A stretch of DNA of 64,000 nt from positions 62,001 through 126,000 of the forward strand of contig OZ037845.1 of assembly GCA_964035575.1 (NCBI GenBank), in the 5' to 3' direction. A program made the position numbers and the translations under genes. Within the stretch, counting starts at the first letter, position 1; the number at the start of each line of letters is the position of its first letter. This DNA is from Rhynchopus sp. YZ270_cl-10. Taxonomy: Eukaryota. Below the pieces are notes generated by a model. The model had not been told where the DNA came from. It made no database searches and saw only the letters and a list, made by a program, of their open reading frames with translations. Shown here piece by piece: positions 13,379-35,249 of the stretch.

Positions 13379-13477
13379 GCGGGTTTGCGGGTTTGCGGGT
13401 TTGCGGGTTTGCGGGTTTGCGGGTTTGCGGGTTTGCGGGTTTGCGGGTTTGCGGGTTTGCGGGTTTGCGGGTTTGCG
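13379..13477 (+). repeat. (GCGGGTTT)12 tandem array
   Basis: Read directly. Confidence 0.98.
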
Positions 13478-14856: not shown

Positions 14857-17800
14857 ACCTGCAGCAGCACCGACAGCAACAGCAACAGCAGCAGCAGCAA
14901 CTGCAGCAACAACACTGTAGGTGGGGGTGAGCGAGGTATGCTGGTGTTCGGGGCCAGCCTTGCGGGGCGAGAAGGACAGAGTTACTGTGTGACGTTACGG
15001 GTGTGGGGGACCTTTATCACCCCCAATGTTCACATGGGGCGTGCAGAACATGGGCTTGGGTTTGACTGGTGGAGCATCCTTTGGGAACGCCTTTCTTCTC
15101 TGCGCCGACCAGACCCCCGCTGGGTAGCCGAGGCACCTGAGTGGGGTGTGTTTGTGTCTTTCGCGGTCCTGGACATGTGGAAGGACAGACGCGCCCCTAC
15201 CCTCAGTCACCTCATATTGTGGCTGGTGGGTAGGAGGGGGACCAGGAGGACGCGCCGAGGTCACAGGTCCTTGAACTGGACCAAGGCACAGGCGAGCAGG
15301 TTCCGTCGGCGCAAGGCGCCATGCAAGCGTCCGCCCTCTCAACTTTTCCGCAGGATAAGGGCAGCCGTTGTGAGAGTGGCTTTGCAGTGGGTGGCCATCT
15401 GGGCTCTGGTTTGCGTGGGGTATGAGCTTGGGAGATCGGCGCCACGGGCTTTGGGTTGTGCACTGATCCGGGACGCAGAGCTGCTGAGTGTGCTGCTGAG
15501 GAAGGGGCTCCTACAGGGCCGATACAGAGCACGTAGCGGGAGGCTGTGGTTGCGAGTACTTGCCAGCAGGGTGTGGGTTTTCATGCAGAGGTTGAGGCGA
15601 CCGGCGGGGACAGGGGACGGGTGGGAGCTGTCACCTCAGAGCATAAGCCTGGGGCCCGGGGCGCTGGCAGGTGGAGCAGACGGGGACATCAACCCGGAGG
15701 AGGCGGCAAACCTTGACGCATTCCTCGAGGTGCATGGGGGGAAGAGGGTGCCGAACGCAGCCAACGGCGAGTGCATGTACGTGGCCTTACTGGGTAAGAA
15801 GAACGCGCTGTACTTGGATGTCAGCAAAGCACGCACTGAGCTGGCTGACAGAGCGCGGGTCACGAAGGTGAAGACCGGTCTCAGACGCTACTTCGAGACC
15901 GAGGCACAGCTGTCAAGCTTCATTGACGGCCTCACCAACCCTGAGGTGTGGGGCAACCACCTCACCCTACACCTGGCAGCAAATGCATGGTCCACCACGA
16001 TAGCGGTAGTGCAGCCTGGGCCGAATCCAGTGGTGACGATCAACCCCGCAGCCTCATCGAAAGACTTGCGGACGCAGAAAGACCGCCGCGTCAGGGTAGT
16101 TTCACTCCTCAATAATCACTATGAGGAAGTGCAAATGGACCCAAAGAACGCCCTGGCAATGGTCCAGTCGGCCCCCTTCGCAGAAAGGCCTAACAGCAAC
16201 ACCCATCCCTGCCATGACGAAGGAGTCGCCTTCTCCTCTGGGGGCTGATGCACCGAGGCTCTTCTGCCCTGTTCCGTGTTGCAACGGAAGCAGTCTACAC
16301 CGTCCCCAGCCCTTCTCTGTTCCCGGCCTGCGCACACACATCGGTGCACACCTGTCTTCCGGCGACCACATCCCCCACGACACCCTCAACAAGTTGGGGT
16401 TAGGACAGTGTGAAGCGTGTGGGGGGATACGGTCGGCATCGAAGGAGACATGTCTTCAGTGTGCGAAACTGGTAAAGGCGATCGCAAAGCCCACACCCAG
16501 GGAACGCACCGCAGTGGAAAAGGCAGACGACGTTGACTTGCCGGAGTGGTGGGAGATAGCTCAAATCCCCATCAGGACAACAGATGCGATCCCCACGAGC
16601 ATCGACCGTCCAGCCGCTGTGGAGTTCACCCAGGCACTTGAGGATGTGGCCGCAGTTGGCGATGAGGCAAGCTGGAAACGTTTGTGCATGTTCGCGAAGC
16701 TGGTCCTACCGGCGAAGCGAGGTGGGAAGCACCTCAAGACGAAGGTGGCAGTCTTGCGGCAGAAGGATGTGGATGAGTGGAGAGAAGGTGAGATCGCAGC
16801 AATGTGGCGAGCAGCTGCGAATCGCACAGGCGGTACGAAGAAGGAGAAGGAGCGGAAGGAACCAACGTGGGAAGAAAGGGAGAAGGCGATGGTCCGGGAG
16901 GTGCGGAATGGGAGGATGGCAGCAGGGATGAGCCGCCTCCACAAGGGTGGGCTGGCAGAGCGTACTGAGGAATCCACAGACATCCTCCGCAGAAAGCACC
17001 CCCATGAGGAACCCCAACCTGCCACTTCTCTGCCGGAAATTGCTTCCGAGCCGCTGAAGCCGATCGCCGCCCTCAAAGCCATAAATAGCATGGCAAAGGG
17101 CTCTGCTCCAGGTCCCTTTGGTCTGCGCGGGGATCACCTCAAGGGGTGGATGGTCAAACACCCGGACCTGAACATCTTGCCACTGATGACGCAAGTCCTG
17201 GACCTGCTGCGACGCGGGAAAGCCCCCTCCGAGACAGCTATGTTCATGGCAGGAGCTACTCTGGTGGCGTTAAAGAAGGGTGACCAAGGCGACGTCCGCC
17301 CCATCTCTGCAGGCAACACACTTCGGCGAGTCGTGAGCAAGATCGAGGTGGCGTCTGTGAGGGAAAAGGCACGAGGAGTGCTGCTGCCAGGGAGACAAGT
17401 TGGGGTGGCGGTGGACGGTGGACTGGAAGCGGCGACAATGGTTGTGGCAGCATACGCAAAACGACACCAGGGGAGCGACAAAGTGATCGTACAGATTGAC
17501 TACGAGAACGCATTCAACAGCATCTTTCGCAAGACTTTTCTGGAAGCCACAAGGAAATATCTCCCGTCCATTTCACCGTGGGTCGAATGGTGCTACAACT
17601 CCCACACCGGGCTAGTGTATGGTGACGAGATGATCCCATCCACCAGAGGCGCGCAGCAAGGCGACCCCGCAGGGCCCCTACTCTTCTCCCTGGGGATCAA
17701 AGCACTGACAGACGAAGTGCGTGCAGTCCAGGGCATCGACTGTAGCATCTGGTACCTCGATGATGGGACGATCATGGGGAACCCAGAGGCGGTGGCTCGA

Positions 17801-20119
17801 GCGCTGGAGTTAGTGAGGACACGCAGTGCGGAGCTGGGGCTGAAGGTGAAGCTGTCAAAGTGTGAAGTCATCGCCCTAGGACAGCAGACTCCGTTGGACC
17901 TGGACAGAGCTGGCCTCCCCGTGTGCAGCCACACCACTGACTTGGCGGAGACTTGCTCAGCCTGTGAAGGAAAAGTGATGAGCGTGAAGTATGGAGGCTT
18001 TGCGTTCCTGGGGGCGCCAATCGGGGACGACGAGTACTGCGAAGCGTACATGGAGAAGAAGGTGGAGGAATTCGCGGTGCAACTGCGTCTGCTGCAGAAG
18101 GTGTCTGACTCGCAGGCTGGACTGACATTACTCCGTCAGTGCGAGGGGTTTGCACGCATGGTTTTCTACATGAGAGCCATTGGTCACGCGTGCACCCACA
18201 AGTACCTCAGCCAGTACGACAAGGAGGTAGACGCCGCCCTGGCCGCGCTTTTTGGTGATGAGGATGGAGGCCTGCCGGAAGAAGCACGGAGACAGGCCGC
18301 ACTGCCATGTAGGGTAGGGGGCATGGGCGTGCGCCGCATCCGCGACCACTGGACTGCAGCAGCCATGGGAGCAAGGAGCGGCCTGCACCAACTGTGCACC
18401 GAACTGGACCCCAGCTTCACCTGGGACGCCGAAGGATGGGAACGGACGGCAACGCTGTACAACGAGCAAGTGGCTGAAGGTGCTAGGATTGACCCCAAGC
18501 TGCAGCCAGCCGTCCCCCTGCGTCAACGTGATCTGTCTGCAGGGATCCTGGAGGAACAATTGCGGGACCTCTTCGTCAAGGGTGATGCGTACGACAAGGC
18601 GCGTCTCAATTCTCTGGCCCTCCCCCAAGCAGGGTCCTGGCTTACTGCACCCCCCACCTGGGAGCACTACATCCCTCCGATTGCATTCAAGGCCGCAGCC
18701 AGACTCCGCCTCCACCTCCCCATATACGCGGAGGGTGTCTCATGCAGGCAATGCAACCAGCCCATGGACACCAGGGGGGACCACATCTTCGCCTGCAGAA
18801 TGGGTGGGCATCGTATACTGCGACATAACTCAGTACGCGATTATGTGTATGGAGCAGCAAATGAGGCAGGTCTGAGCCCCATCCTGGAACCCAACCACCT
18901 CATCCTGGGCAACAACAAGCCCGCTGACATTCTGCTGTCCACAGGGGTCGGGGAGTCGAGAGGACGAGCTATCGATGTGACTGTGTGTGTGGACGCCGAC
19001 GTCAGCGTCGATGGTGCAGGGTGCCGCAGTCGCGAAGGGGTACGCGGCGACGAAGGCGGAAACTGCCAAGAGGAAGAAGCATGGTGACGCGTGTGCGGCG
19101 GAGCGGCTGGCGTTCACACCCTTCGCCCTGGAGACCACAGGAGGTCTGGGACCCGCGGCGGCGTCGATATGGCAGCAGATGCTCCGTTTCGCAGCGGACA
19201 GGAAGCTTGGGAACAGAGTGGAGATGTCACAGAGGTGGAATTGGGGGCTAGGGACGACGCTGCAGCGACAGATCGGGAAGGCCGCGACGGATCGAGGGTC
19301 TCTGACTGGTTGCCTGAGGGGTCCTCTGCGAGAGCGTGTGGACTTAGATCCCACCGTCGACCCGGAAGAGGGGGACTTGATACGCTTGCCCCCCGACCAT
19401 CTACCTAACCTGGAAGTGACAGACGACCACCAGGGAGACATCAGGGTGAGTGCGGAGGAGGAGCCGGAGACAGGCAACGAGAAGGAAACGGCGCCAGAGA
19501 CAGCAGCACAGGACCCAACCCCCCACAGCGAACTGGAGGCCAACTTGGTGAAGTGGGGGCTGTCCCGACCGCAGGTGCCCGTGCCGTTCCGAGTAGGAGA
19601 CTGTGCGTTCGACGCAGTGTGCTGGTCAGTGCGGAGCTGGAAGGTGGTGACATCGTCGACCCTTCGGTCCCTGGCGGTGGAGAGAGTGAAGAGAGATGCT
19701 GACCTGGCGAGAAATGCGATGCCCGACCTCGCGACCTGGGTGCGATGGATGAGCCTGGCAGGGAACAGGGATCGCAGGTCGTGGGCGGACCAGACAGCAC
19801 TGGCGGGTCTGGCACGGGCTTTGCAGGTAGTCATTGTGGCGGTCGTGTCATCGGACTCTAAGGTGCACATCCATAGACCAGCCAGCAAGTCGAACGGGGC
19901 CGTAGCAGTGCTGCACACAGGAGCTCACGAGGCTGGCCACTTCTCGCCGTTATGCATGACAGACAACACGTTTGCATATCACCGGAGGTGGCGTACGAGG
20001 CGCTGGACGCGTGGTGGGATCAGCGGGAGGAGCTGGGGCGCGTCGGAGGACGGCAGACGAGTCAGTACGGGGCGCTTAGGGCGGTCCTGGTGCTGATGAT
20101 GGAGGCGACCTTCAAATAG
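14857..20119 (+). pseudogene. Disrupted CRE-A polyprotein (OTU1, Zn finger, RT, RLE, OTU2)
   Basis: ORF pieces 14854-16248, 16121-19087, 18987-20096; RT QQGDPAGPLLF and WYLDDG; RLE RHNSVRD, KPADI, FALETTGG. Confidence 0.9.
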
Positions 20120-20450
20120 AAGGGCCTCGCGATTGGTTGTGATTGTGGTTTATGTGGGCACTGTTGCCCTTCCCTTCTCTGTTAGTTTCCCCCACCCCAA
20201 CTTTTGTGTGTAGCAACACCTGTTTAGTTCCCTGTTTCCTTTTTACCCCCAACCCCTCCCATTAGATACATGTGTGTAATCCCCCTGGTGTCAAGCCCCT
20301 TGTATGTAAATTCCAAATCTTCCCCCTCACAGAAAACGTCAGGAGTAAGCCAAGGAGGCGGTTTGTCTGTGGGCGTCGGCCTAGGAGTAAGCGACGGAGA
20401 TTTTTTCCCCCACCCCATCCCCTACACCATGGACTCGTAATGACATTACG

Positions 20451-20700
20451 TGACGAGGGACGAGGGAAATTACGTGGGAAATTACGCGCGCAATGACGTC
20501 GTCACGACGCGGGCACCCCCTCGTAATGACGACGTCATGACGTGGGGTTTTCCTCGTCACGACGACGGCATTACGACGTCATGACGAGGGGTGCCCTCGT
20601 AATTACGAGGGGACCCCTCGTAATTACGAGGGGTGCCCTCGTAATTACGAGGGGGTGCCCTCGTAATTACGAGGGGACCCCTCGTAATTACGAGGGGTGC
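20451..20700. repeat. Left subterminal palindromic repeats (CCCTCGTAATTACGAGGG and CGTCATGACG variants)
   Basis: About five tandem palindromes at 20594-20697; same motifs at the right end. Confidence 0.9.
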
Positions 20701-21385
20701 TCCCGTGGTCATTGTCTGGCTATTGCCTCCCAGGGAAAGGGACTCTCGAATTTTTTTTTTTGCCCCTAGAAAGGGCTAATTTCGACGATTTGAGGCCATT
20801 AAAAGCAAAATTTGATGCTTTTGAGCATCTGTGGGGGTCTAAAACGCGTTTTTGCGGTTTTTTTTCCTCCTTCCCCCATATTTTTCTTTACCGACTACTT
20901 TGGCTCAGCATAAAAAAAATTTTAAATAAAGGTCGAGATTTAGGTAGTGGCCAAGTAAAAGAACACAATTTTTTAATGGACCATCTGGGGGTACACAAAT
21001 ACGCAGTTCTCCTCTCAAAAACCACGGATATTTTACGATATCCTGTGTCCATTATAATACCGTAATCGTAAGAATTCTGGGACGTAACAAATCTGGGACA
21101 ATTGGGAAAAAATCTGAAACTTGGGACATTTTTACGTCCCAGCTTTTTACGATTACGGTATACCATGCAAAAAAGATTGTCCCCCTCCTCCCCCCCCAGT
21201 AGAGAAAAGAAGAAGAAAAAGACAGTTTCTGAGATATGTCTCATCTGTTTTTGATTCATGGCCAATTCTGACCGAATTGCCCTCGGTACGGCGACATCAT
21301 CCTTTTCGGAAAGTTCTCACTCCGTACTGCTTGTCTTTGCGGCGGTATCCTTCTTCCTTTTGTTCTGTCGTAGTCAGTCGGCGTT

Positions 21386-21528
21386 CTTAGTTCCTTAGTT
21401 CCTTAGTTCCTTAGTTCCTTAGTTCCTTAGTTCCTTAGTTCCTTAGTTCCTTAGTTCCTTAGTTCCTTAGTTCCTTAGTTCCTTAGTTCCTTAGTTCCTT
21501 AGTTCCTTGGTTCCATAGTTCCTTAGTT
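21386..21528 (+). repeat. (TAGTTCCT)n 8-bp array, about 17 units
   Basis: Read directly, just upstream of transposon ORF1. Confidence 0.97.
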
Positions 21529-21604
21529 TCTCAGTATTCTTTTTTGTGGTTGTTTACATTTAAACACACAACAGGATTACACAAAACCTCTCTCTCTTTC
21601 CACC

Positions 21605-22789
21605 ATGCCGAGAGTACCTAAGAAGAAGGCACCCAAGGCTCCGGCGAAGAACGGGCCGTCGACGCCTCTCCCTCAGTCCCCACCTGCGACCTCGCCCACC
21701 GATCAAGTGCCAGTTCCCGTCCTTCTCGCGACGCCACCCACCTCCAACCCTTCTTCCCAGACGAGCACCCCTGCGGGGAAAAAGTCGAGTGGTGATACTG
21801 GTACCCCCCTGCAGCGTGCTTTTTGTGAAATTTTTTTAATTCACCACGAGAAGAACACCCTCACCCTCCCCAAGCTCGCTGTTCTGTTCAACCGTTTGTT
21901 CGACAAAGTGTGCCAAGGGCCGCAGATGTCGAAGGCGGTGGCAGCGCGGTTCACGGACTGGCAGGGTCACCTCCAGCAACGTGAGGTGAACCAGCTCAGC
22001 GAGGCCAACAAGCAACTCCCGCGCGCTATTCGTGTGGGGGCAACGACATTCGTTAATGTCGGCTTGCGGGACACCCTTGCGTCGCTCGCCACTGGCCAGC
22101 ACACCAACGCTTTGCAAATCGTGCGCAGCGCTGCCGAAACGGCAGGAAAGTCCGAGGAGCTGCAGGGCCGGATGACGGTCTTGTATGACAAGACACACGG
22201 CGCATCGGCACCCAACACTGAACAGCCTGCATCTTGCAAACGGCCCCTCATCCCGTATCCTCCTCAGAGCGTTTGCGGGGCGAACATGAGGGACGGACAC
22301 CAGGTCTTTTCCGTTTTCTATCTAGTGGGGCCCAATGTCACTATTCAGGAGTGTTCGCTCTCCGGGTCAGAGGTGACACTCTCCATTCTGAGAAACTGCA
22401 AGTTCCAGGGGGAGCTGCAGAACGGAAAGTACCGTTTCTCTTACTGTGTCCCCCCTGACCACGCCATCGACCACACTCGTCTGCCCGAAGCGGCGCTTGA
22501 CGGAGCGATGCTCCTCGTGCATGTTCCCTTGATTTCCCTGGCCGCCCCCAAGCAGGCCATCCTCAGCACTACCGCGTTCGACTACAACGTGGTACTTCCC
22601 CCCGAAGCCGCCCCAACCGTGGCACCGGTGGTTCTGCATACGCCAGAGGGAGAGGGAGAGGGCGAACAGGACCCGGCCAATCAAGCGGATGAATCCGATG
22701 AAGAGGGTGAGGGTGCAGTACATGGTCAACTAGATGATCTTGGGTTCATGTCGATGTCAAGCTTTTCTGTGCAGGTTCAGAAACCCTAG
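21605..22789 (+). CDS. Transposon accessory protein (394 aa): basic/Pro-rich N-terminus, helical domain, putative alpha-crystallin/HSP20-like domain, acidic tail
   Basis: GKYRFSYCVPPDHAID..LPEAALDGAMLLVHVP resembles the ACD C-terminal pattern F.R.F.LP..VD....A.L..GVL.I.VP. Confidence 0.7.
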   Translation: MPRVPKKKAPKAPAKNGPSTPLPQSPPATSPTDQVPVPVLLATPPTSNPSSQTSTPAGKKSSGDTGTPLQRAFCEIFLIHHEKNTLTLPKLAVLFNRLFDKVCQGPQMSKAVAARFTDWQGHLQQREVNQLSEANKQLPRAIRVGATTFVNVGLRDTLASLATGQHTNALQIVRSAAETAGKSEELQGRMTVLYDKTHGASAPNTEQPASCKRPLIPYPPQSVCGANMRDGHQVFSVFYLVGPNVTIQECSLSGSEVTLSILRNCKFQGELQNGKYRFSYCVPPDHAIDHTRLPEAALDGAMLLVHVPLISLAAPKQAILSTTAFDYNVVLPPEAAPTVAPVVLHTPEGEGEGEQDPANQADESDEEGEGAVHGQLDDLGFMSMSSFSVQVQKP

Positions 22790-23058
22790 CCCGTGTCTAA
22801 GTTCTGCATCATTTCTATGGTGTTAAAATTCCCTGTTCAAGTCCCCTTTCTTAATTAATATGTCCTTTTTCTGTCACTTTGACAAGAGAAAAACGCTTTT
22901 TTGTCTTACCTTTACACACCGCAAAGTAAAAGAAGTCTTCCCAACTCCCTCGAGCTTTGATTATATTCCAAACTCCACTCACTCTCCTCTAACTCCCACA
23001 ACTGTTTGCAACACACACAGACCTGTGACACACGTTTTCATTTTTTTTTTTTTTTTAA

Positions 23059-24655
23059 ATGAAATGCAAGAGGGCAGACCCCGAGAGGCAGCGTGAGAAG
23101 CAGAGGGCCCGCACCCTTGGAGACGCGCTGCTCCGTGCGCGCTTACGCCACGGCCTCAGTCGCCACTGCATGGCAAAGCTTGCCCGCGCGATGCACGAGG
23201 CAAACCGCGCAAAGGGCCTCGCTCCTGTGCAGTTCGGTTTGTCTCGCAGCACGATCGCGAAGAGGGAGAGGCTCCTCCAGGCTCAGGCATGGAGGCTGCA
23301 GCAGAACGTGATGCAGGTCACGGCGTTTCTTCTTCGTCGCGTCCCTCGTGTCGCGTTCACCCCTCCGAGCAAGCTCGAGAAGTGGCCCATCACCTCCCTC
23401 CTCAGCATGGACGGCTACACCCCGCGGAACTCCTTGCGTACGAGAAATGCGCGCTTTCGGATGGCTGTGTGCCTACAAGCCGGAGCCTACGGCACCAGCC
23501 CCCTCACCATCATCGATGTCCCGAAGTCGGCGTTCAAGGGCATTGACCTGGGCACGCTTCTCGCTGCATCGCAGCAGACGGTGTACCGTCTGGAGCAAGA
23601 CGGGGGTATTGTGTTCCGGATCCCTATTAATAGGGTCGGTGGGGATCACGCGGAGCTCTGGGTGTTGTTCAAGGGGATGGGAGGAAGGGGTCACAGGAGT
23701 GCATTTTGCTGTACCCGCAGCGAGGATTGGCTCTCCACTTTGCACTCGTGCAAGCGCTGTTCGATTCAAGAGCTCAGCGCACACTTCCATTGCCCCCTCG
23801 CAGCCCACCTCCACACTCCTGCGTACACGGTGACCCCCCCCCCTCCACGACATCAAGGGCATCATCACCATGCTCCTTCATGTCCACTCGGGAGGACCAT
23901 CCGCCATAAAGGATGTCCTCGGGGTGGATTCGTTACAGAACGTGACCACCTCTCTGTGCCGAACAATGTTGGCGCAGCTGCTTGAGGCAGAAGCACCCAC
24001 CGACCCAGAGAGACTTGCTTGCGTGGCAGTTGAGTGCCTGGTCGCCTTTCGGTACCAGGATATCCCCATTCGATACCACGTATCCGGCACCAACGGTCAT
24101 GAGTTCGTGGCCAGTCTCCTTGCGTACCACGTCCTCATATTCGTGTTTGAGTGGTGGTTGCCTGGGTCGACCTGGCACAAAGGTGGTACGTACTTTCATA
24201 GTGCGAATCACTGGTTCGACGTGGAGGATTGCCAACTTTTTAGTCAATCCGATGAAGCGTTCGAGAGGGAGAACGGAGAGCGGAAGCGTCGTGCGTGCGT
24301 GGTCGGTCCCGCCACTTACGAGCGCGACCAGCTCATGTTTGAGATTGCGAACCTGCCCAATAGAGGATTGAGTGTGCTGCCTATGGAGCGTGAGTGCATT
24401 GCGTGGGGATACGACTCTTTCGCTCCTTTCTGCCGTTCGTGTGTCTGCAAGGGTGATTGGGGGAAGCGGCTGACGGCACTGCGTTCCAGACTGGTTTCCT
24501 TCGGCTTCTCACACTCGAGCGCGAGAGATGACGACTTTTGTTATCTTGGCTCTGATCTCCGGCAACGCAGAAACAAGTCCATGCGCGTTTGTGTTTGTGA
24601 CGCGACCAAGGTGAAGTTTGACGCCAAGGTTAAGAAGGCGTTTAATTTGAAATAA
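23059..24655 (+). CDS. RAG1/Transib-like DDE transposase (~531 aa after removing one C from the C10 run at 23834-23843)
   Basis: LLSMDGY (D1), VGGDHAEL..GMGGRGHRSAFCC (D2 and Zn ligands), PPLHDIKG, TYFHSANHW, SDEAFERENGERKR (E); compare RAG1 SCDG, GYDEK, ALHCDIG, NYFHKTLAHV, ASEGNESGNK. Confidence 0.85.
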
Positions 24656-26130
24656 AAGAGATAAATACTTGTGTGCCTCGTATGCGAGGAGAGGTCTCTT
24701 CCGAGCCCATTGTCGCACCCTTTGACCCCGTTACACCAGATTACACCCCATTACACCTGAATTTCCTCGTGGCCAGTACACCCATTATCGAGTCATGGTT
24801 TCAGTTCCCGTAATTTTGCTCTTTTTTTAAATTTTTTCAATTAAAAAATGTCGTCACGAAGATAAAATTTTTTGTACCTTCTGTGCCTGCGTCCCTGAGG
24901 CGTTTGCACTATCAACTTCACCTTTTTTTTTTTTTTGTAAATCAAGCTACTTGACAATGGACATAGAAACGACGGAGGGTGCGTGCCCGCCAGCTTCACT
25001 CATTGTTCTTTCTTCATAGTTCAGCAACAAAAGAATGGGGTAATATTTCTTGTTTTTTTCTGTTCCTTTTTCCACCACACCTCCAAAAACACCCTCACAG
25101 GATGACAGTATACAAAAACATGATAAACGATGAAAACCCGCAACTCTACGCCACAGGTTCTTTCTTCCTCTGGGAAACTCTTTGTCAGTCACTGCTATAG
25201 CCATTTAACCCAGGGAGCATAGCTAGTGCAAGAAATTCGACTTCGGGATCCGGAAAGTCTGTCCTCTGCTCTTGCGGAGGACTAGGCACAAGAAAATATT
25301 GCGTTCCCCCAGGAAACTAATTTTTGTCACAGTAATTTTTGCCCAGGGCATGCTCTTGAAGCATGGCGGCTTGGTGTGAGAAGGGGCAGTGTGTTGTTTT
25401 GTTCTAGATTTCAACGGTTGTTAGAACGAGTCAAGTGGATGCTTATCTAAACACTGACTTTAGTACAGACCCGAGAGATCACACATGACTTTGAGGAAAG
25501 AACAAAGCAATGCATCTGTACCCGCACGCCAGGTTGTAGTTACTTCAGAATTTTCTTAAGTTTGCGCGAAAGAGAGCGGGGGCAACTCCTTTGTATCATA
25601 AGCCCGCTGTGCAGAACAAAGCGAGGAACCTTAAAACACTACCTGCGTGGTGGCTGAATTCACATCCCTTAGAATTACCAGAATTCAGCCTTTGTTGAAG
25701 TAACGTACATACTTGTATGTGCGTGTCACGCTTCTCCATCCTTAAATGGGTGCACTGCTTCACTGCAGCGGGTAAGCCTCTCTCGACTAGTGCAAACTTA
25801 AGAATTTTCTGCTGTAACTTACCAAAATCGATTTTCTTTCACCCCAAACACCCGCAACACCCCACCTGCTACTTCGGTAGCCTGTGTTGTTGGGAGTTGG
25901 TTCTCATGTTGATCCCCAGTGTTTTGCACTGCTTCTTCTGAGCCCAACGCTGTTTGGCCTGTCGACGTAATAAATACGAAGACAGGGCGGCGGTGCCAAC
26001 AATTTTCCGATGATGTAACGTTTTATCTGATTGATTTATCGTTTGATATACCTTGTGTGTGCTACTTCATGCACACCCAAGCAAGGTATATTGAACGGTA
26101 CTTTCAAGCGATACTTCGTTATGTCATTGG

Positions 26131-26438
26131 GGGTACCTGGGTACCTGGGTACCTGGGTACCTGGGTACCTGGGTACCTGGGTACCTGGGTACCTGGGTAC
26201 CTGGGTACCTGGGTACCTGGGTACCTGGGTACCTGGGTACCTGGGTACCTGGGTACCTGGGTACCTGGGTACCTGGGTACCTGGGTACCTGGGTACCTGG
26301 GTACCTGGGTACCTGGGTACCTGGGTACCTGGGTACCTGGGTACCTGGGTACCTGGGTACCTGGGTACCTGGGTACCTGGGTACCTGGGTACCTGGGTAC
26401 CTGGGTACCTGGGTACCTGGGTACCTGGGTACCTGGGT
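26131..26438 (+). repeat. (GGGTACCT)38 8-bp array
   Basis: Read directly; abuts the right subterminal repeats. Confidence 0.98.
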
Positions 26439-26443
26439 GCCCA

Positions 26444-26577
26444 CGTCATGACGACGTCATGACGAGGTAATTACGAGGGGGTGCCCTCGTAATTACCTCG
26501 TCATGACGAGGGCACCCCCTCGTAATTACGAGGGGGTGCCCTCGTCAAGGCACTCGTAATTACCTCGTCATGACGCG
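26444..26577. repeat. Right subterminal palindromic repeats of the DNA transposon
   Basis: CGTCATGACG and CTCGTAATTACGAG motifs matching the left end. Confidence 0.9.
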
Positions 26578-27121
26578 CGTAATGTCATTACGAGTCCATG
26601 GTGTACGAGTTCCATGGGGGGTCGCTACTGGCGTTAATCATCCAAACAAAAAAGACTACAAGAGACAAAACAAAAGTAACAAGAAAGGAACTTCGTATTG
26701 TAAAAAGAAAGCCCCATCCCGCCCCTTCCTCCCCTCCAGAACCAGCTGGGCACCAATACTGGAAATACAGCAAAACCACACAGACTGGACAGTCTATATT
26801 CTCCCCTGCCTCTCCCGTGTTAATGTTCACCCCTCCTTTATCCCAAATTGTCATAGAGCTAAATATAGTTGTATGCCTCGCTTCGCTCGGCAAACAACGA
26901 TACATAATAGGGCGACATGCTGATGACAAATATCTCCCTCGTTTAATTCACTTTTGTGCCTCGTTCTAACTAAACCGGCACATGTACTGATTGTAAGACT
27001 TTTGGCCCTCACTTCGCTCGGACCAAGCGCCTTTCATGTGCATTATAAACGTACCCCCCTTGCCCTGTCCAGTTTGATGTGGAACAAAAAAAGTCGAGCC
27101 TAGGGCTAAGTTGAACAACAC

Positions 27122-27170
<49 letters not shown>

Positions 27171-27403: not shown

Positions 27404-30400
27404 TTGGTGGTGAAGATGTGCAGGTGGAGTGCCCAGCTTTGGGCTATGGTGCTCCTGTGTGGAGCCATGGATGATGGCGGGGGTGACAGCCGAAGCTGGT
27501 GCAGCAACATGAGCAACATGCGCAGCAGCAGCAGCATGAGCAGGAGCAGCATGAGCAGCAGCATGAGCAGCAGCAGCATGTGCAGCAGCAGCATGAGCAG
27601 CAGCAGCATGAGCAGCAGCATCGTGAGCAGGAGCACTGCCATCAACATCAGTACCTCCCACGGTTGCGGCAGGCACGTATCGCGAGTGGGCTCCTCAACA
27701 CCAACTCAGCACTCTCAGGTACCACGTTCTCGCTGCAGCAACATGAGCAGCCATGACTGGAGTGATGGCCTCTATGGCAGCGTCTACTGCAACAATAGCG
27801 GCTCCAACAACCACACCAGCAACATCTACACCTGCAGCAATGGCCGCAAGGGCTTCATGTGCAGCGGCTACAGAAGCTGCAGGTGCACCCCCATTCCCCC
27901 CCATTATTACCCCAAAAAGAGGCCTGTGCCCAACAACCCAAGCGGCTGCAGCTTTGATAGCAGCAACAACAACAACAACTACAACAACGGTGGCAGACAC
28001 TGGATGCGTGGGCGGACACTAGATGTGCGGGCGGACAGCATCAGCAGCAACAACAGCAACTACAACAACAGTGGCAGACAGTGGATGCGCGGGCGGACAC
28101 TAGATGTGCGGGCGGGCAGCATCAGCAGCAACAACAACAACAACTACAACAACAGTGGCAGACAGTGGATGCGCGGGTGGACACTAGATGTGCGGGCGGA
28201 CAGCATCAGCAGCAACAACAGCAACTACAACAACGGTGGCAGACAGCGGATGCGCGGGCGGACACAGGATGTGCGGGCGGACAGTATCAGCAGCAACAAC
28301 AGCAACTACAACAACAACCGTAACACCAGCAACAACAACAGCATCAGCAGCACCTGCAGCAGCACCGACAGCAACAGCAACAGCAGCAGCAGCAACTGCA
28401 GCAACAACACTGTAGGTGGGGGTGAGCGAGGTATGCTGGTGTTCGGGGCCAGCCTTGCGGGGCGAGAAGGACAGAGTTACTGTGTGACGTTACGGGTGTG
28501 GGGGACCTTTATCACCCCCAATGTTCACATGGGGCGTGCAGAACATGGGCTTGGGTTTGACTGGTGGAGCATCCTTTGGGAACGCCTTTCTTCTCTGCGC
28601 CGACCAGACCCCCGCTGGGTAGCCGAGGCACCTGAGTGGGGTGTGTTTGTGTCTTTCGCGGTCCTGGACATGTGGAAGGACAGACGCGCCCCTACCCTCA
28701 GTCACCTCATATTGTGGCTGGTGGGTAGGAGGGGGACCAGGAGGACGCGCCGAGGTCACAGGTCCTTGAACTGGACCAAGGCACAGGCGAGCAGGTTCCG
28801 TCGGCGCAAGGCGCCATGCAAGCGTCCGCCCTCTCAACTTTTCCGCAGGATAAGGGCAGCCGTTGTGAGAGTGGCTTTGCAGTGGGTGGCCATCTGGGCT
28901 CTGGTTTGCGTGGGGTATGAGCTTGGGAGATCGGCGCCACGGGCTTTGGGTTGTGCACTGATCCGGGACGCAGAGCTGCTGAGTGTGCTGCTGAGGAAGG
29001 GGCTCCTACAGGGCCGATACAGAGCACGTAGCGGGAGGCTGTGGTTGCGAGTACTTGCCAGCAGGGTGTGGGTTTTCATGCAGAGGTTGAGGCGACCGGC
29101 GGGGACAGGGGACGGGTGGGAGCTGTCACCTCAGAGCATAAGCCTGGGGCCCGGGGCGCTGGCAGGTGGAGCAGACGGGGACATCAACCCGGAGGAGGCG
29201 GCAAACCTTGACGCATTCCTCGAGGTGCATGGGGGGAAGAGGGTGCCGAACGCAGCCAACGGCGAGTGCATGTACGTGGCCTTACTGGGTAAGAAGAACG
29301 CGCTGTACTTGGATGTCAGCAAAGCACGCACTGAGCTGGCTGACAGAGCGCGGGTCACGAAGGTGAAGACCGGTCTCAGACGCTACTTCGAGACCGAGGC
29401 ACAGCTGTCAAGCTTCATTGACGGCCTCACCAACCCTGAGGTGTGGGGCAACCACCTCACCCTACACCTGGCAGCAAATGCATGGTCCACCACGATAGCG
29501 GTAGTGCAGCCTGGGCCGAATCCAGTGGTGACGATCAACCCCGCAGCCTCATCGAAAGACTTGCGGACGCAGAAAGACCGCCGCGTCAGGGTAGTTTCAC
29601 TCCTCAATAATCACTATGAGGAAGTGCAAATGGACCCAAAGAACGCCCTGGCAATGGTCCAGTCGGCCCCCTTCGCAGAGCTTGACCCGAAAGGCCTAAC
29701 AGCAACACCCATCCCTGCCATGACGAAGGAGTCGCCTTCTCCTCTGGGGGCTGATGCACCGAGGCTCTTCTGCCCTGTTCCGTGTTGCAACGGAAGCAGT
29801 CTACACCGTCCCCAGCCCTTCTCTGTTCCCGGCCTGCGCACACACATCGGTGCACACCTGTCTTCCGGCGACCACATCCCCCACGACACCCTCAACAAGT
29901 TGGGGTTAGGACAGTGTGAAGCGTGTGGGGGGATACGGTCGGCATCGAAGGAGACATGTCTTCAGTGTGCGAAACTGGTAAAGGCGATCGCAAAGCCCAC
30001 ACCCAGGGAACGCACCGCAGTGGAAAAGGCAGACGACGTTGACTTGCCGGAGTGGTGGGAGATAGCTCAAATCCCCATCAGGACAACAGATGCGATCCCC
30101 ACGAGCATCGACCGTCCAGCCGCTGTGGAGTTCACCCAGGCACTTGAGGATGTGGCCGCAGTTGGCGATGAGGCAAGCTGGAAACGTTTGTGCATGTTCG
30201 CGAAGCTGGTCCTACCGGCGAAGCGAGGTGGGAAGCACCTCAAGACGAAGGTGGCAGTCTTGCGGCAGAAGGATGTGGATGAGTGGAGAGAAGGTGAGAT
30301 CGCAGCAATGTGGCGAGCAGCTGCGAATCGCACAGGCGGTACGAAGAAGGAGAAGGAGCGGAAGGAACCAACGTGGGAAGAAAGGGAGAAGGCGATGGTC

Positions 30401-32593
30401 CGGGAGGTGCGGAATGGGAGGATGGCAGCAGGGATGAGCCGCCTCCACAAGGGTGGGCTGGCAGAGCGTACTGAGGAATCCACAGACATCCTCCGCAGAA
30501 AGCACCCCCATGAGGAACCCCAACCTGCCACTTCTCTGCCGGAAATTGCTTCCGAGCCGCTGAAGCCGATCGCCGCCCTCAAAGCCATAAATAGCATGGC
30601 AAAGGGCTCTGCTCCAGGTCCCTTTGGTCTGCGCGGGGATCACCTCAAGGGGTGGATGGTCAAACACCCGGACCTGAACATCTTGCCACTGATGACGCAA
30701 GTCCTGGACCTGCTGCGACGCGGGAAAGCCCCCTCCGAGACAGCTATGTTCATGGCAGGAGCTACTCTGGTGGCGTTAAAGAAGGGTGACCAAGGCGACG
30801 TCCGCCCCATCTCTGCAGGCAACACACTTCGGCGAGTCGTGAGCAAGATCGAGGTGGCGTCTGTGAGGGAAAAGGCACGAGGAGTGCTGCTGCCAGGGAG
30901 ACAAGTTGGGGTGGCGGTGGACGGTGGACTGGAAGCGGCGACAATGGTTGTGGCAGCATACGCAAAACGACACCAGGGGAGCGACAAAGTGATCGTACAG
31001 ATTGACTACGAGAACGCATTCAACAGCATCTTTCGCAAGACTTTTCTGGAAGCCACAAGGAAATATCTCCCGTCCATTTCACCGTGGGTCGAATGGTGCT
31101 ACAACTCCCACACCGGGCTAGTGTATGGTGACGAGATGATCCCATCCACCAGAGGCGCGCAGCAAGGCGACCCCGCAGGGCCCCTACTCTTCTCCCTGGG
31201 GATCAAAGCACTGACAGACGAAGTGCGTGCAGTCCAGGGCATCGACTGTAGCATCTGGTACCTCGATGATGGGACGATCATGGGGAACCCAGAGGCGGTG
31301 GCTCGAGCGCTGGAGTTAGTGAGGACACGCAGTGCGGAGCTGGGGCTGAAGGTGAAGCTGTCAAAGTGTGAAGTCATCGCCCTAGGACAGCAGACTCCGT
31401 TGGACCTGGACAGAGCTGGCCTCCCCGTGTGCAGCCACACCACTGACTTGGCGGAGACTTGCTCAGCCTGTGAAGGAAAAGTGATGAGCGTGAAGTATGG
31501 AGGCTTTGCGTTCCTGGGGGCGCCAATCGGGGACGACGAGTACTGCGAAGCGTACATGGAGAAGAAGGTGGAGGAATTCGCGGTGCAACTGCGTCTGCTG
31601 CAGAAGGTGTCTGACTCGCAGGCTGGACTGACATTACTCCGTCAGTGCGAGGGGTTTGCACGCATGGTTTTCTACATGAGAGCCATTGGTCACGCGTGCA
31701 CCCACAAGTACCTCAGCCAGTACGACAAGGAGGTAGACGCCGCCCTGGCCGCGCTTTTTGGTGATGAGGATGGAGGCCTGCCGGAAGAAGCACGGAGACA
31801 GGCCGCACTGCCATGTAGGGTAGGGGGCATGGGCGTGCGCCGCATCCGCGACCACTGGACTGCAGCAGCCATGGGAGCAAGGAGCGGCCTGCACCAACTG
31901 TGCACCGAACTGGACCCCAGCTTCACCTGGGACGCCGAAGGATGGGAACGGACGGCAACGCTGTACAACGAGCAAGTGGCTGAAGGTGCTAGGATTGACC
32001 CCAAGCTGCAGCCAGCCGTCCCCCTGCGTCAACGTGATCTGTCTGCAGGGATCCTGGAGGAACAATTGCGGGACCTCTTCGTCAAGGGTGATGCGTACGA
32101 CAAGGCGCGTCTCAATTCTCTGGCCCTCCCCCAAGCAGGGTCCTGGCTTACTGCACCCCCCACCTGGGAGCACTACATCCCTCCGATTGCATTCAAGGCC
32201 GCAGCCAGACTCCGCCTCCACCTCCCCATATACGCGGAGGGTGTCTCATGCAGGCAATGCAACCAGCCCATGGACACCAGGGGGGACCACATCTTCGCCT
32301 GCAGAATGGGTGGGCATCGTATACTGCGACATAACTCAGTACGCGATTATGTGTATGGAGCAGCAAATGAGGCAGGTCTGAGCCCCATCCTGGAACCCAA
32401 CCACCTCATCCTGGGCAACAACAAGCCCGCTGACATTCTGCTGTCCACAGGGGTCGGGGAGTCGAGAGGACGAGCTATCGATGTGACTGTGTGTGTGGAC
32501 GCCGACGTCAGCGTCGATGGTGCAGGGTGCCGCAGTCGCGAAGGGGTACGCGGCGACGAAGGCGGAAACTGCCAAGAGGAAGAAGCATGGTGA
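27404..32593 (+). CDS. CRE-A polyprotein part 1: Ser/Asn-rich repeats, hydrophobic segment, OTU1, Zn finger, reverse transcriptase, first half of RLE
   Basis: NGECMYVAL..WGNH..NHYE; CPVPCC..HIGAH; APGPFGLR, VRPISAG, IDYENAFN, QQGDP, YLDD; CRQC..H..C, RHN, PADI. Confidence 0.92.
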   Translation: MVVKMCRWSAQLWAMVLLCGAMDDGGGDSRSWCSNMSNMRSSSSMSRSSMSSSMSSSSMCSSSMSSSSMSSSIVSRSTAINISTSHGCGRHVSRVGSSTPTQHSQVPRSRCSNMSSHDWSDGLYGSVYCNNSGSNNHTSNIYTCSNGRKGFMCSGYRSCRCTPIPPHYYPKKRPVPNNPSGCSFDSSNNNNNYNNGGRHWMRGRTLDVRADSISSNNSNYNNSGRQWMRGRTLDVRAGSISSNNNNNYNNSGRQWMRGWTLDVRADSISSNNSNYNNGGRQRMRGRTQDVRADSISSNNSNYNNNRNTSNNNSISSTCSSTDSNSNSSSSNCSNNTVGGGERGMLVFGASLAGREGQSYCVTLRVWGTFITPNVHMGRAEHGLGFDWWSILWERLSSLRRPDPRWVAEAPEWGVFVSFAVLDMWKDRRAPTLSHLILWLVGRRGTRRTRRGHRSLNWTKAQASRFRRRKAPCKRPPSQLFRRIRAAVVRVALQWVAIWALVCVGYELGRSAPRALGCALIRDAELLSVLLRKGLLQGRYRARSGRLWLRVLASRVWVFMQRLRRPAGTGDGWELSPQSISLGPGALAGGADGDINPEEAANLDAFLEVHGGKRVPNAANGECMYVALLGKKNALYLDVSKARTELADRARVTKVKTGLRRYFETEAQLSSFIDGLTNPEVWGNHLTLHLAANAWSTTIAVVQPGPNPVVTINPAASSKDLRTQKDRRVRVVSLLNNHYEEVQMDPKNALAMVQSAPFAELDPKGLTATPIPAMTKESPSPLGADAPRLFCPVPCCNGSSLHRPQPFSVPGLRTHIGAHLSSGDHIPHDTLNKLGLGQCEACGGIRSASKETCLQCAKLVKAIAKPTPRERTAVEKADDVDLPEWWEIAQIPIRTTDAIPTSIDRPAAVEFTQALEDVAAVGDEASWKRLCMFAKLVLPAKRGGKHLKTKVAVLRQKDVDEWREGEIAAMWRAAANRTGGTKKEKERKEPTWEEREKAMVREVRNGRMAAGMSRLHKGGLAERTEESTDILRRKHPHEEPQPATSLPEIASEPLKPIAALKAINSMAKGSAPGPFGLRGDHLKGWMVKHPDLNILPLMTQVLDLLRRGKAPSETAMFMAGATLVALKKGDQGDVRPISAGNTLRRVVSKIEVASVREKARGVLLPGRQVGVAVDGGLEAATMVVAAYAKRHQGSDKVIVQIDYENAFNSIFRKTFLEATRKYLPSISPWVEWCYNSHTGLVYGDEMIPSTRGAQQGDPAGPLLFSLGIKALTDEVRAVQGIDCSIWYLDDGTIMGNPEAVARALELVRTRSAELGLKVKLSKCEVIALGQQTPLDLDRAGLPVCSHTTDLAETCSACEGKVMSVKYGGFAFLGAPIGDDEYCEAYMEKKVEEFAVQLRLLQKVSDSQAGLTLLRQCEGFARMVFYMRAIGHACTHKYLSQYDKEVDAALAALFGDEDGGLPEEARRQAALPCRVGGMGVRRIRDHWTAAAMGARSGLHQLCTELDPSFTWDAEGWERTATLYNEQVAEGARIDPKLQPAVPLRQRDLSAGILEEQLRDLFVKGDAYDKARLNSLALPQAGSWLTAPPTWEHYIPPIAFKAAARLRLHLPIYAEGVSCRQCNQPMDTRGDHIFACRMGGHRILRHNSVRDYVYGAANEAGLSPILEPNHLILGNNKPADILLSTGVGESRGRAIDVTVCVDADVSVDGAGCRSREGVRGDEGGNCQEEEAW
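27960..28410 (+). repeat. Four ~81-84-bp coding repeats (WMRGRTLDVRADSISSNNSNYNN) in a CAG/CAA-rich tract
   Basis: Read directly in the DNA and translation. Confidence 0.9.
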
Positions 32594-34427
32594 CGCGTGT
32601 GCGGCGGAGCGGCTGGCGTTCACACCCTTCGCCCTGGAGACCACAGGAGGTCTGGGACCCGCGGCGGCGTCGATATGGCAGCAGATGCTCCGTTTCGCAG
32701 CGGACAGGAAGCTTGGGAACAGAGTGGAGATGTCACAGAGGTGGAATTGGGGGCTAGGGACGACGCTGCAGCGACAGATCGGGAAGGCCGCGACGGATCG
32801 AGGGTCTCTGACTGGTTGCCTGAGGGGTCCTCTGCGAGAGCGTGTGGACTTAGATCCCACCGTCGACCCGGAAGAGGGGGACTTGATACGCTTGCCCCCC
32901 GACCATCTACCTAACCTGGAAGTGACAGACGACCACCAGGGAGACATCAGGGTGAGTGCGGAGGAGGAGCCAGAGACAGGCAACGAGAAGGAAACGGCGC
33001 CAGAGACAGCAGCACAGGACCCAACCCCCCACAGCGAACTGGAGGCCAACTTGGTGAAGTGGGGGCTGTCCCGACCGCAGGTGCCCGTGCCGTTCCGAGT
33101 AGGAGACTGTGCGTTCGACGCAGTGTGCTGGTCAGTGCGGAGCTGGAAGGTGGTGACATCGTCGACCCTTCGGTCCCTGGCGGTGGAGAGAGTGAAGAGA
33201 GATGCTGACCTGGCGAGAAATGCGATGCCCGACCTCGCGACCTGGGTGCGATGGATGAGCCTGGCAGGGAACAGGGATCGCAGGTCGTGGGCGGACCAGA
33301 CAGCACTGGCGGGTCTGGCACGGGCTTTGCAGGTAGTCATTGTGGCGGTCGTGTCATCGGACTCTAAGGTGCACATCCATAGACCAGCCAGCAAGTCGAA
33401 CGGGGCCGTAGCAGTGCTGCACACAGGAGCTCACGAGGCTGGCCACTTCTCGCCGTTATGCATGACAGACAACACGTTTGCATATCTGCGAAGCCTTGCC
33501 CCCGACACCCCCCTTCCAGAGATGCAGTGCCACAGCACCGGAGCGCTGTCACGGATGGAGGAGCGCCCGGGGAGACAGGGGGAATTGCTCACGTGCGAAA
33601 ACTGCGCACTCATCACCGAATGTAGTGTCCCCCACTGGTTTTGTAGTTCCTGCGAGCGCACATGGTGTGAGGGATGTGGGAGCGCCAACGCAAAGTGTGT
33701 GCTGAGGGCAAAGCCAGTTCAGCCAGTTCAGCCAGTTCAGCCGACAACATCGCAGACAGTGGGAGGTAGCTACTACAACAGCAACCCAGCTCCCCCACAG
33801 GACGCGGCAACGGAGGTGAAGGAGGAGGTTATGGATGAGGAGGATTCCGCCGACTGCGCCGACCACGACACCACCATGGACAACAACACCGCAACCGCAG
33901 CAGAATCCTTCGTCTGGGGGCCATCAGAGCAGAGCTACAACACCACACCAACAGCTCTGACTGGTGACCACCACTTGGGTTCAGCGAAGACTGGTGGATG
34001 GACGGCTAAGTCCCACGCGGAAAGAAGGACGAAGCTGACCACCCTTGGGACTTCGCGGCGGGCGCAGGGGAACCACACTCGTCGCTCCGGTGTAGTGGAG
34101 GACAGGTCTGCGGAGACCACAGCAAGGCGGCCTTCTCCCCCTATCTCGCGAGGGTCGGATGTGGAGGCGAAAGGGTTAGTCCCACACAGCCAGAAGGAAG
34201 GGGACAGGGTGCCGAGAAATGTCGAAGAGTGGGCGGACTGCTTCTTCCCCAGGGGAGGGACCAGGCGAGAGGGAATGACTCCCTTGGCACCGGAGGTGGC
34301 GTACGAGGCGCTGGACGCGTGGTGGGATCAGCGGGAGGAGCTGGGGCGCGTCGGAGGACGGCAGACGAGTCAGTACGGGGCGCTTAGGGCGGTCCTGGTG
34401 CTGATGATGGAGGCGACCTTCAAATAG
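32493..34427 (+). CDS. CRE-A polyprotein part 2 (+1 frame): second half of RLE, OTU2, Cys-rich Zn finger, tail
   Basis: AETAKRKKH, FTPFALETTGG; GDCAFDAV..WADQ..GHFSPL; CENC..CSSC..CEGC. Confidence 0.88.
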   Translation: MWTPTSASMVQGAAVAKGYAATKAETAKRKKHGDACAAERLAFTPFALETTGGLGPAAASIWQQMLRFAADRKLGNRVEMSQRWNWGLGTTLQRQIGKAATDRGSLTGCLRGPLRERVDLDPTVDPEEGDLIRLPPDHLPNLEVTDDHQGDIRVSAEEEPETGNEKETAPETAAQDPTPHSELEANLVKWGLSRPQVPVPFRVGDCAFDAVCWSVRSWKVVTSSTLRSLAVERVKRDADLARNAMPDLATWVRWMSLAGNRDRRSWADQTALAGLARALQVVIVAVVSSDSKVHIHRPASKSNGAVAVLHTGAHEAGHFSPLCMTDNTFAYLRSLAPDTPLPEMQCHSTGALSRMEERPGRQGELLTCENCALITECSVPHWFCSSCERTWCEGCGSANAKCVLRAKPVQPVQPVQPTTSQTVGGSYYNSNPAPPQDAATEVKEEVMDEEDSADCADHDTTMDNNTATAAESFVWGPSEQSYNTTPTALTGDHHLGSAKTGGWTAKSHAERRTKLTTLGTSRRAQGNHTRRSGVVEDRSAETTARRPSPPISRGSDVEAKGLVPHSQKEGDRVPRNVEEWADCFFPRGGTRREGMTPLAPEVAYEALDAWWDQREELGRVGGRQTSQYGALRAVLVLMMEATFK

Positions 34428-35249
34428 AAGGGCCTCGCGATTGGTTGTGATTGTGGTTTATGTGGGCACTGTTGCCCTTCCCTTCTCTGTTATTTTCCCC
34501 CACCCCAACTTTTGTGTGTAGCAACACCTGTTTAGTTCCCTGTTTCCTTTTTACCCCCAACCCCTCCCATTAGATACATGTGTGTAATCCCCCTGGTGTC
34601 AAGCCCCTTGTATGTAAATTCCAAATCTTCCCCCTCACAGAAAACGTCAGGAGTAAGCCAAGGAGGCGGTTTGTCTGTGGGCGTCGGCCTAGGAGTAAGC
34701 GACGGAGATTTTTTCCCCCACCCCATCCCCTACGAGTTCCATGGGGGGTCGCTACTGGCGTTAATCATCCAAACAAAAAAGACTACAAGAGACAAAACAA
34801 AAGTAACAAGAAAGGAACTTCGTATTGTAAAAAGAAAGCCCCATCCCGCCCCTTCCTCCCCTCCAGAACCAGCTGGGCACCAATACTGGAAATACAGCAA
34901 AACCACACAGACTGGACAGTCTATATTCACCCCTGCCTCTCCCGTGTTAATGTTCACCCCTCCTTTATCCCAAATTGTCATAGAGCTAAATATAGTTGTA
35001 TGCCTCGCTTCGCTCGGCAAACAACGATACATAATAGGGCGACATGCTGATGACAAATATCTCCCTCGTTTAATTCACTTTTGTGCCTCGTTCTAACTAA
35101 ACCGGCACATGTACTGATTGTAAGACTTTTGGCCCTCGCTTCGCTCGGACCAAGCGCCTTTCATGTGCATTATAAACGTACCCCCCTTGCCCTGTCCAGT
35201 TTGATGTGGAACAAAAAAAAGTCGAGCCTAGGGCTAAGTTGAACAACAC

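Follow-up and report, generated by a model that had tools for sequence, protein, structure and literature searches.

RAG1 assembles antibody and T-cell receptor genes and descends from Transib-type transposons; the age and variety of its enzyme architecture are still debated. Here we describe a DNA transposon in a 64,000-nucleotide stretch of Rhynchopus sp. YZ270_cl-10 (contig OZ037845.1, positions 62,001 to 126,000), called the window throughout, whose second open reading frame, ORF2, encodes a predicted transposase of the RAG1/Transib type. Among described systems, the CACTA-Mirage-Chapaev-Transib (CMCT) clade is characterized by CA..TG termini, target duplications of 2 to 5 bp, and C-x2-C and H-x3-4-H motifs, and it is in this setting that ESTA, an EnSpm-like group reported in 2025 from Pucciniales rust fungi, was found to make TA duplications and to resemble RAG1 by HHpred (PMC12730594). 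A 2026 preprint describes Transib relatives with 5-bp, 3-bp and, in Oriex of a fruit fly, apparent TA duplications (bioRxiv 10.64898/2026.08.26.747230), and Tao et al. (2022) reported that a RAG-like transposon making 5-bp duplications is active in a pelagophyte and that Transib-like proteins occur in bacteria, fungi, and plants (PMC9435367). The DNA transposons listed in the accessible part of the Diplonema papillatum genome paper are TATE, MULE, and Helitron only (PMC10161547), and among the papers searched we found none naming both Transib and diplonemids. Altogether, we consider it very probable that window positions 20425-26603 constitute a cut-and-paste DNA transposon, that ORF2 encodes a predicted RAG1/Transib-type DDE transposase, and that the element represents a likely undescribed protist lineage of the CMCT assemblage.

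Results

Ends of the element and its target site

The element spans 6179 bp and is bounded by perfect 26-bp terminal inverted repeats (TIRs) starting CACCATGG (Table 1). The 26-mer, CACCATGGACTCGTAATGACATTACG, matched exactly two sites in the 64-kb window, one at each end of the element; no further site was found in the window when up to 3 mismatches were allowed, and 100 shuffles gave an expectation of 0. An inverted-repeat scan lengthened the arms to 46 nt at 83%. The termini, CACCATGG...CCATGGTG, are of the 5'-CA..TG-3' type and, together with the 2-bp duplication described below, agree with the published account of the CMCT clade (PMC12730594). The heptamer CACCATG agrees with CACAATG-like heptamers at 6 of 7 positions, with CAC kept. 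An earlier note on this DNA, made from the letters alone, had described these same perfect repeats.

TA dinucleotides abut both ends of the element. The empty paralogous site, CCCCATCCCC-TA-CGAGTTCC, lies in the second window copy of the retroelement that hosts the insertion and holds a single TA. Consistent with this, an insert of 6181 bp, equal to 6179 + 2, follows from the offsets of the flanking repeats (14308 and 8127). Moreover, in contigs from three public runs (X1, X4, and X9) the left flank continues directly into GAGTTCCATGG, i.e., the empty form, and the arrangement is therefore no assembly artifact. The TA duplication that the earlier note had read from the empty site is thereby borne out at one insertion. 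Because the first base of the element and the first base of the right flank are both C, a 3-bp TAC duplication combined with an asymmetric end, one base shorter, is formally compatible with this one site; a TA duplication with symmetric ends explains it more simply.

The transposon was inserted into the 3' part of a non-long terminal repeat retroelement with reverse transcriptase and OTU (protease) domains, of which the window contains two copies. With the insert excluded, the identity between the two is 99.77% over 5135 bp and 99.60% over 1005 bp, in agreement with the recent insertion proposed in the earlier note. A segment of about 800 bp (33486-34288) in the second host copy is missing from the first. 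Directly to the right of the duplicated TA, the host sequence reads CGAGTTCCATGG, and the element's own right end is CGAGTCCATGG. This look-alike pattern has four sites in the 64 kb: the two TIRs, 26606-26617, and the counterpart at 34733-34744 in the second host copy. Insertion therefore took place at a site resembling the element's own end. Target capture may be guided by recognition of ends, or the target site in the host may preserve what is left of an older end.

The transposase gene and its copies

In the window copy, a run of C that is one base too long (ten C, C10) breaks ORF2, so that its two parts lie in different frames. All relatives align in one frame up to 23841 and in the next frame from 23837. 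An intact ORF2 of 530 amino acids (aa), P0007, is found on an 802,493-bp contig; compared with the window ORF2, it shows a one-residue deletion only and 0 substitutions in 261 + 268 aligned residues. The break postulated in the earlier note is thus real and consists of a +1 shift in the C10 run, and the natural intact protein is one residue shorter than the repaired 531-aa version proposed there. Split or shortened forms of ORF2 occur on contigs of 695,684, 993,258, and 1,313,960 bp (90% cluster of the N-terminal open reading frame), which brings the element to at least five copies on four contigs, without an amino acid substitution between copies. Of the five gene-called copies, three or four are interrupted at the C10 run or close to it. 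In contigs from runs X1, X4, and X6, the length of the run is unchanged, and the same contigs carry a 6-nt insertion at 22568 and a 3-nt deletion at 24424, both of which are also present in the protein copies.

Predicted fold of ORF2

We modeled ORF2 with AlphaFold2 from P0007 and 27 relatives (28 sequences), which yielded a confident model with a predicted local distance difference test score (pLDDT) of 89.8 and a predicted template modeling (TM) score of 0.89. The order of strands and helices in the model fits an RNase H-like DDE core. A Foldseek search of the PDB gave 45 matches at an E value of ≤1e-3, and all 35 matches listed down to rank 45 are RAG1, BbRAGL, or HzTransib. The best was RAG1 (6cg0_A; E value 4.2e-7, TM score 0.50, probability 1.00); the P element followed at an E value of 2.2e-3. 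When the Foldseek matches were realigned with VIA-align, RAG1 (6xny_A) scored Z 16.8 with 395 residues aligned at a root mean square deviation of 4.1, model residues 15-434 being placed onto RAG1 459-997. HzTransib (6pqx_A) reached Z 14.6 with 376 residues aligned and BbRAGL Z 13.7, followed by the P element (6p5a_A; Z 13.6, 339 residues aligned at 6.0 A), ISCth4 (Z 10.0), and Hermes (Z 7.3). Over RAG1, HzTransib, and BbRAGL, the number of aligned residues ranged from 376 to 397.

A search independent of Foldseek, covering 48,161 chains, returned eight at Z ≥ 8: four RAG1 chains (14.8, 14.6, 14.3, and 11.6), BbRAGL (13.7), the P element (13.6), HzTransib (10.9), and ISCth4 (9.2). In addition, an ESM Atlas feature search of ORF2 pointed to RAG1 clusters at 0.90-0.93, which we treat as a lead only. 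The model appears to contain the parts of the RAG1 core, namely, DNA-binding/dimerization helices, a pre-RNase H region, RNase H, a putatively zinc-linked insertion domain, and C-terminal helices. These comparisons, which the earlier note had proposed for ORF2 and which placed RAG1, HzTransib, and BbRAGL at the top, support at the level of the predicted fold the RAG1/Transib-like transposase claimed there.

Motifs and relatives of ORF2

The motifs named in the earlier note were all found in ORF2: SMDG (D118), GGD (D196), LH (262-263), YFH-x3-H (378-384), and SDEAFE (397-402). Among the relatives, the catalytic candidates are invariant, with D118 in the first strand conserved in 15/15, D196 in 18/18, and E402 in 24/24; the D196-H197 pair is placed after the fifth strand and is likewise kept in 18/18. 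Conservation extends to the Cys/His residues C217 (19/19), H229 (19/19), and C231 (17/19), to the LH region (L262 and H263, 22/23 each; D264, 23/23; K266, 21/23), to H380-x3-H384 (24/24), and to D398 and E399 (24/24). Behind the catalytic part lies a C-terminal Cys-rich domain, marked by C457 (23/24) and by C510 and C512 (21/21). We take these motifs to correspond to RAG1 D600/D708/E962, C727/C730, and H937/H942, a putative equivalence based on the motifs and the aligned ranges. The spacing from D196 to E402 is 206 aa, within the range of 206 to 214 aa given for the second D to E of Transib by Kapitonov and Jurka (PMC1131882).

A full HMMER pass with the C-terminal half of ORF2 through 1.84 billion representatives identified 29 proteins at an E value of ≤1e-3, 19 of them at ≤1e-10 and 3 at ≤1e-30, with identities of 28 to 50%. 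Many of these relatives are 500 to 700 aa long and align across their whole length. One, the transcript P0019 from the diplonemid Rhynchopus euleeides (EukProt), makes the protist host assumed in the earlier note plausible; others come from JGI and Logan short contigs, and the family also occurs in marine samples. At least three further subfamilies (P0022/P0047/P0048/P0052, P0034/P0053/P0054, and P0016/P0057), 27 to 36% identical to ORF2, are present in the same megabase-contig assembly, and P0022-type copies of 524 aa lie on ten or more contigs. C-terminal C2H2/zf-Di19 fingers were detected by Pfam in 9 of the 28 family members and are lacking in this element. No relative was confirmed in metagenome, prokaryotic-genome, or viral contigs, where the scans were weak and relied on one short peptide pattern, and the C-terminal open reading frame alone gave no usable match in the ESM Atlas.

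ORF1, subterminal repeats, and copy abundance

Upstream of the transposase gene and on the same strand lies ORF1. Its sequence search returned only its own cluster of near-identical copies from the same assembly; these show 0 substitutions over 394 residues and differ by 2- or 4-residue insertions only. The protein is predicted to have a helical middle, a beta-rich rear, and an acidic tail. The single-sequence AlphaFold model was unusable (pLDDT 37.5). Sequence searches gave no sign of a RAG2-like propeller in ORF1. ORF1 may act as an accessory protein.

The 8-bp motif CTCGT[A/C]AT is concentrated at the ends: 23 of its 26 copies in the window lie within the terminal 330 bp of the element, counting both ends, and one copy sits inside each TIR. 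A BLAST comparison of the element with the rest of the window revealed neither a second copy nor a fragment. In run X4, the depth of the ORFs was 3.4 to 4.9 and that of the ends 20 to 80. Furthermore, several internal joints in run contigs alter the number of subterminal repeats. Since the ends are much deeper than the ORFs and the joints change the repeat number, these data point to shortened derivatives that share the ends. With its identical copies, its empty site, and the abundance of such derivatives, the element looks recently active.

Three segments inside the element (20726-20869, 21050-21157, and 24752-26100) are very high-copy dispersed repeats, with a read-contig depth that exceeds the ORF depth by factors from tens to about 1000. 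X8 and X9, runs from other organisms that lack the ORFs, contain these segments as well. The segment at 21050-21157 is a palindromic unit of about 117 bp that resembles a miniature inverted-repeat transposable element. Rfam gave nothing at the gathering level across the whole window, and for the high-copy interior only a subthreshold miRNA match (18 bits, against a threshold of 245 bits); no tRNAs were found within the element.

Table 1. Window positions of the transposon, its target sites, and its host retroelement
Feature	Position	Strand	Remarks
Left TA of target duplication	20423..20424		Single TA at the empty paralogous site
Left TIR, 26 bp	20425..20450	+	Begins CACCATG; 2 matches in the window, 0 by chance
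Left subterminal region	20425..20700		13 CTCGT[A/C]AT copies, five as palindrome CCTCGTAATTACGAGG
Internal microsatellite	21386..21508		8-bp unit TAGTTCCT
ORF1, 394 aa	21605..22789	+	No Pfam family
ORF2, N-terminal part, frame 1	23059..23843	+	Helical region resembling DNA-binding/dimerization domains; predicted RNase H-like core with D118 and D196
C10 run, +1 reading-frame shift	23834..23843	+	Intact P0007 reads TPPLHD here, which fits nine C
ORF2, C-terminal part, frame 2	23837..24655	+	LHD, predicted helical insertion domain, H380-x3-H384, E402
Noncoding interior	24656..26130		24752-26100, very high-copy dispersed repeats; 30- to about 1000-fold the depth of the ORFs
Internal microsatellite	26131..26437		8-bp unit GGGTACCT
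Right subterminal region	26440..26603		10 CTCGT[A/C]AT copies
Right TIR, 26 bp	26578..26603	-	From the 26-mer search
Right TA of target duplication	26604..26605		From the empty-site comparison
Host flank resembling the element's own end	26606..26617	+	CGAGTTCCATGG vs CGAGTCCATGG
Host retroelement, copy 1	14857-20424 plus 26606-27164		OTU protease and reverse transcriptase
Host retroelement, copy 2	28352-35292		OTU protease and reverse transcriptase
Empty target site with one TA	34731..34732		In the second host retroelement copy

Surroundings of the element

Elsewhere, the window contains at 1905-7727 (+) a 1940-aa open reading frame with Helitron_like_N and PIF1 helicase domains, representing a Helitron-type element. 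Three loci on the reverse strand, 37836-45528 (-), 49012-56874 (-), and 57398-63703 (-), hold very long open reading frames of 947 to 2620 aa. One of the three has a partial reverse transcriptase domain and the others belong to no Pfam family, the frame in 57398-63703 (-) giving only a weak, below-threshold zinc-ribbon match. Long tandem arrays with units of 12, 13, and 8 bp lie outside the element at 45528-47300, 8796-9116, and 13326-13450. Overall, the window resembles a nest of mobile elements.

Discussion

The data outline how this transposon could move. Binding to the terminal and subterminal motifs would fall to the N-terminal helical region of the transposase, and a dimer of the enzyme would cut both ends through D118, D196, and E402. 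If it behaves like the RAG1, Transib, and hAT enzymes, cutting may proceed via a hairpin on the flanking DNA. Next, the 3' OH ends would be joined 2 bp apart at a target TA, and the TA duplication would arise from gap repair. C217, H229, C231, H380, and H384 may hold a zinc ion linking the insertion domain with the core, by analogy to RAG1. The extra C probably leaves the window copy nonautonomous; like most others, it would depend on an intact copy for its movement in trans.

Several observations weigh against reading the element as a RAG1/Transib-type member of the CMCT assemblage. The duplication is 2 bp long rather than the 5 bp that defines Transib, and it was read at one insertion (1 of 1). 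A diverged related end on a 1176-nt contig (X1 and X6), with 6 mismatches and 1 gap over 70 nt (20425-20494), begins to match at 20425 and not at 20423; therefore, the flank of that relative is probably not TA. An A-rich nonamer after a 12- or 23-bp spacer is absent from both ends. At the protein level, ORF2 matched 0 Pfam families at an E value of ≤10, no transposase or RAG1 family was among the best 25 of the 27 families found by Pfam on 28 relatives, and neither phmmer nor a profile recovered RAG1 or Transib chains among PDB sequences, where matches stayed at chance level. C231-x2-C234 is present in ORF2, but C234 is subfamily specific in the alignment, so the C-x2-C named for the CMCT clade is not conserved family-wide. 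In the fold comparison, the P element came within about 1 Z unit of BbRAGL and above the apo HzTransib chain, and the fold alone is therefore not specific for RAG1/Transib. Finally, no CMC, Mirage, or ESTA structure is among the PDB matches listed, and these groups are therefore not separable from Transib here.

Which known group could instead claim the element has to be judged against this background. Mirage makes 2-bp duplications, and the element might simply belong to a CMCT lineage that already has a name and makes a 2-bp or TA duplication, be it ESTA, Mirage, or an Oriex-type Transib, rather than form a lineage of its own; the mechanism would be unchanged. The TA duplications and HHpred likeness to RAG1 of ESTA, together with the CA..TG termini and 2- to 5-bp duplications shared by CMCT lineages (PMC12730594), speak for such a membership, as does the apparent TA duplication of Oriex within Transib (bioRxiv 10.64898/2026.08.26.747230). 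We nonetheless regard it as unlikely, on comparisons that are all indirect. Known CMC-type and RAG1 families, as modeled in Pfam, had no match in 28/28 family members, and the hosts differ, with a protist here versus fungi and insects. Moreover, the Nozomi/Oriex group is reported in the preprint to give 100% HHpred probability to HzTransib, with a Nozomi-HzTransib identity of 42.8%, whereas the present family is undetectable by HMMER against RAG1 and Transib chains. Less probable by far is a transposase of the P-element type (THAP9-like), or another DDE enzyme with an insertion domain, whose RAG1 likeness would come from a shared RNase H fold and helical insertion. P element and THAP9 proteins have a THAP DNA-binding domain, a GTP-binding insertion domain, and an 8-bp duplication. 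The P-element structure did score close to BbRAGL (Z 13.6 versus 13.7), but it aligned over 339 residues at 6.0 A versus 394 to 395 residues at 4.1 to 4.6 A for RAG1, and its Foldseek E value was 2e-3 versus 4e-7. The absence of a THAP or P-type Pfam match, a duplication of 2 bp where 8 bp would be expected, and the H-x3-H and other Cys/His residues, CAC termini, and 206-aa D-to-E spacing, all of which fit RAG1/Transib, make this origin hardly credible. Tc1/mariner (IS630), a group with DD34E/DD34D catalytic spacing and paired-like HTH domains, was also considered and rejected: it shares the TA target duplication, but ORF2 has no Tc1/mariner match in Pfam, its spacing is 206 aa rather than about 34, the fold search was led by RAG1, and no mariner chain was among the best 50 rows of that search.

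A separate question concerns the C10 run, which could mark the amplification of a single defective copy or, alternatively, programmed +1 shifting. In the latter case, the run would be no defect: the split gene would yield full-length transposase by +1 ribosomal frameshifting or transcriptional slippage and so limit its dosage, as in bacterial insertion sequence elements. In this run, Pro-Pro-Pro is encoded on a CCC.C string, which is a context favoring +1 slippage. The recurrence of the split in most gene-called copies, the C-run length kept in contigs of three runs (X1, X4, and X6), and the lack of any other substitution between copies would all accord with it. However, the intact P0007 is able to supply the enzyme in trans, and recent amplification of one defective copy also predicts identical frameshifted copies; we consider programmed frameshifting quite improbable.

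We return to the proposed undescribed CMCT lineage. The earlier note read the fold and the class of mechanism correctly; the distinct lineage that it inferred stands as a proposal. In a stronger form, which we put forward tentatively and think more doubtful than not, the element would be the founding example of a superfamily-level lineage of RAG1-fold transposases that is native to diplonemids and other marine protists, is invisible to domain libraries, uses TA with a 2-bp stagger and targets that mimic its ends, and carries an unrelated accessory gene. If this is true, the RAG1/Transib-type architecture extends into Discoba, and a compact, recently active enzyme becomes available for asking how the stagger length of the RAG1 fold is set. 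In any case, the family broadens the RAG1 fold's host range and sequence space, shows that standard domain annotation overlooks such elements, and offers, as a small enzyme with a stagger of 2 bp rather than 5 bp, material for structure-function work. The gain is tempered by TA-duplicating RAG1-like lineages and a protist RAG-like transposon that have already been published. The earlier note had presumed TA duplications to be unheard of in this group, a premise outdated by ESTA (PMC12730594) and Oriex (bioRxiv 10.64898/2026.08.26.747230).

Comparison with known systems

With RAG1, BbRAGL, and HzTransib, the predicted enzyme shares the modeled fold over about 390 residues (RAG1 459 to 997; Z 13.7 to 16.8), the DDE order with 206 aa separating the second D from the E, the H-x3-H ahead of the catalytic E, and the LH motif after the Cys/His region; the transposon shares their CAC tips. 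It departs from them in that no similarity is detectable by HMMER, the duplication is a 2-bp TA and not 5 bp, a nonamer-like element is lacking, and the C-x2-C is not conserved. In addition, the transposase is compact (530 aa) with a short helical N terminus and an extra C-terminal Cys-rich domain, and it is preceded on the same strand by ORF1, in which sequence searches saw no sign of a RAG2-like propeller.

ESTA has in common with the element the TA duplication, a RAG1 likeness visible only to sensitive methods, and CA..TG termini as given for its clade (PMC12730594); it differs in its fungal host and in the TET/JBP gene of some ESTA families, of which there is none here, in a comparison made by description only. 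The Oriex/Nozomi-related insect Transibs likewise show an apparent TA duplication and a transposase without an InterPro domain match. Unlike the present family, they are recognizable as Transib by similarity searches and HHpred, and the TIRs of those with noncanonical duplications begin with G, whereas those of our element begin with C (bioRxiv 10.64898/2026.08.26.747230). AanRAGL, an active transposon of the pelagophyte Aureococcus, is likewise of the RAG1 type and at home in a unicellular marine eukaryote, but its TIRs are asymmetric, it makes a 5-bp duplication, it carries a RAG2-like gene, and its sequence similarity to RAG1 can be detected (PMC9435367).

Thus, neither the combination of TA with a RAG1-like enzyme nor a RAG-type transposon in a protist is new. 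What sets this element apart is its divergence, without a link to a known family at the level of hidden Markov models, its host group, its arrangement of Cys and His residues, an added Cys-rich domain at the C terminus, the putative accessory gene ORF1, and the dense 8-bp subterminal motif.

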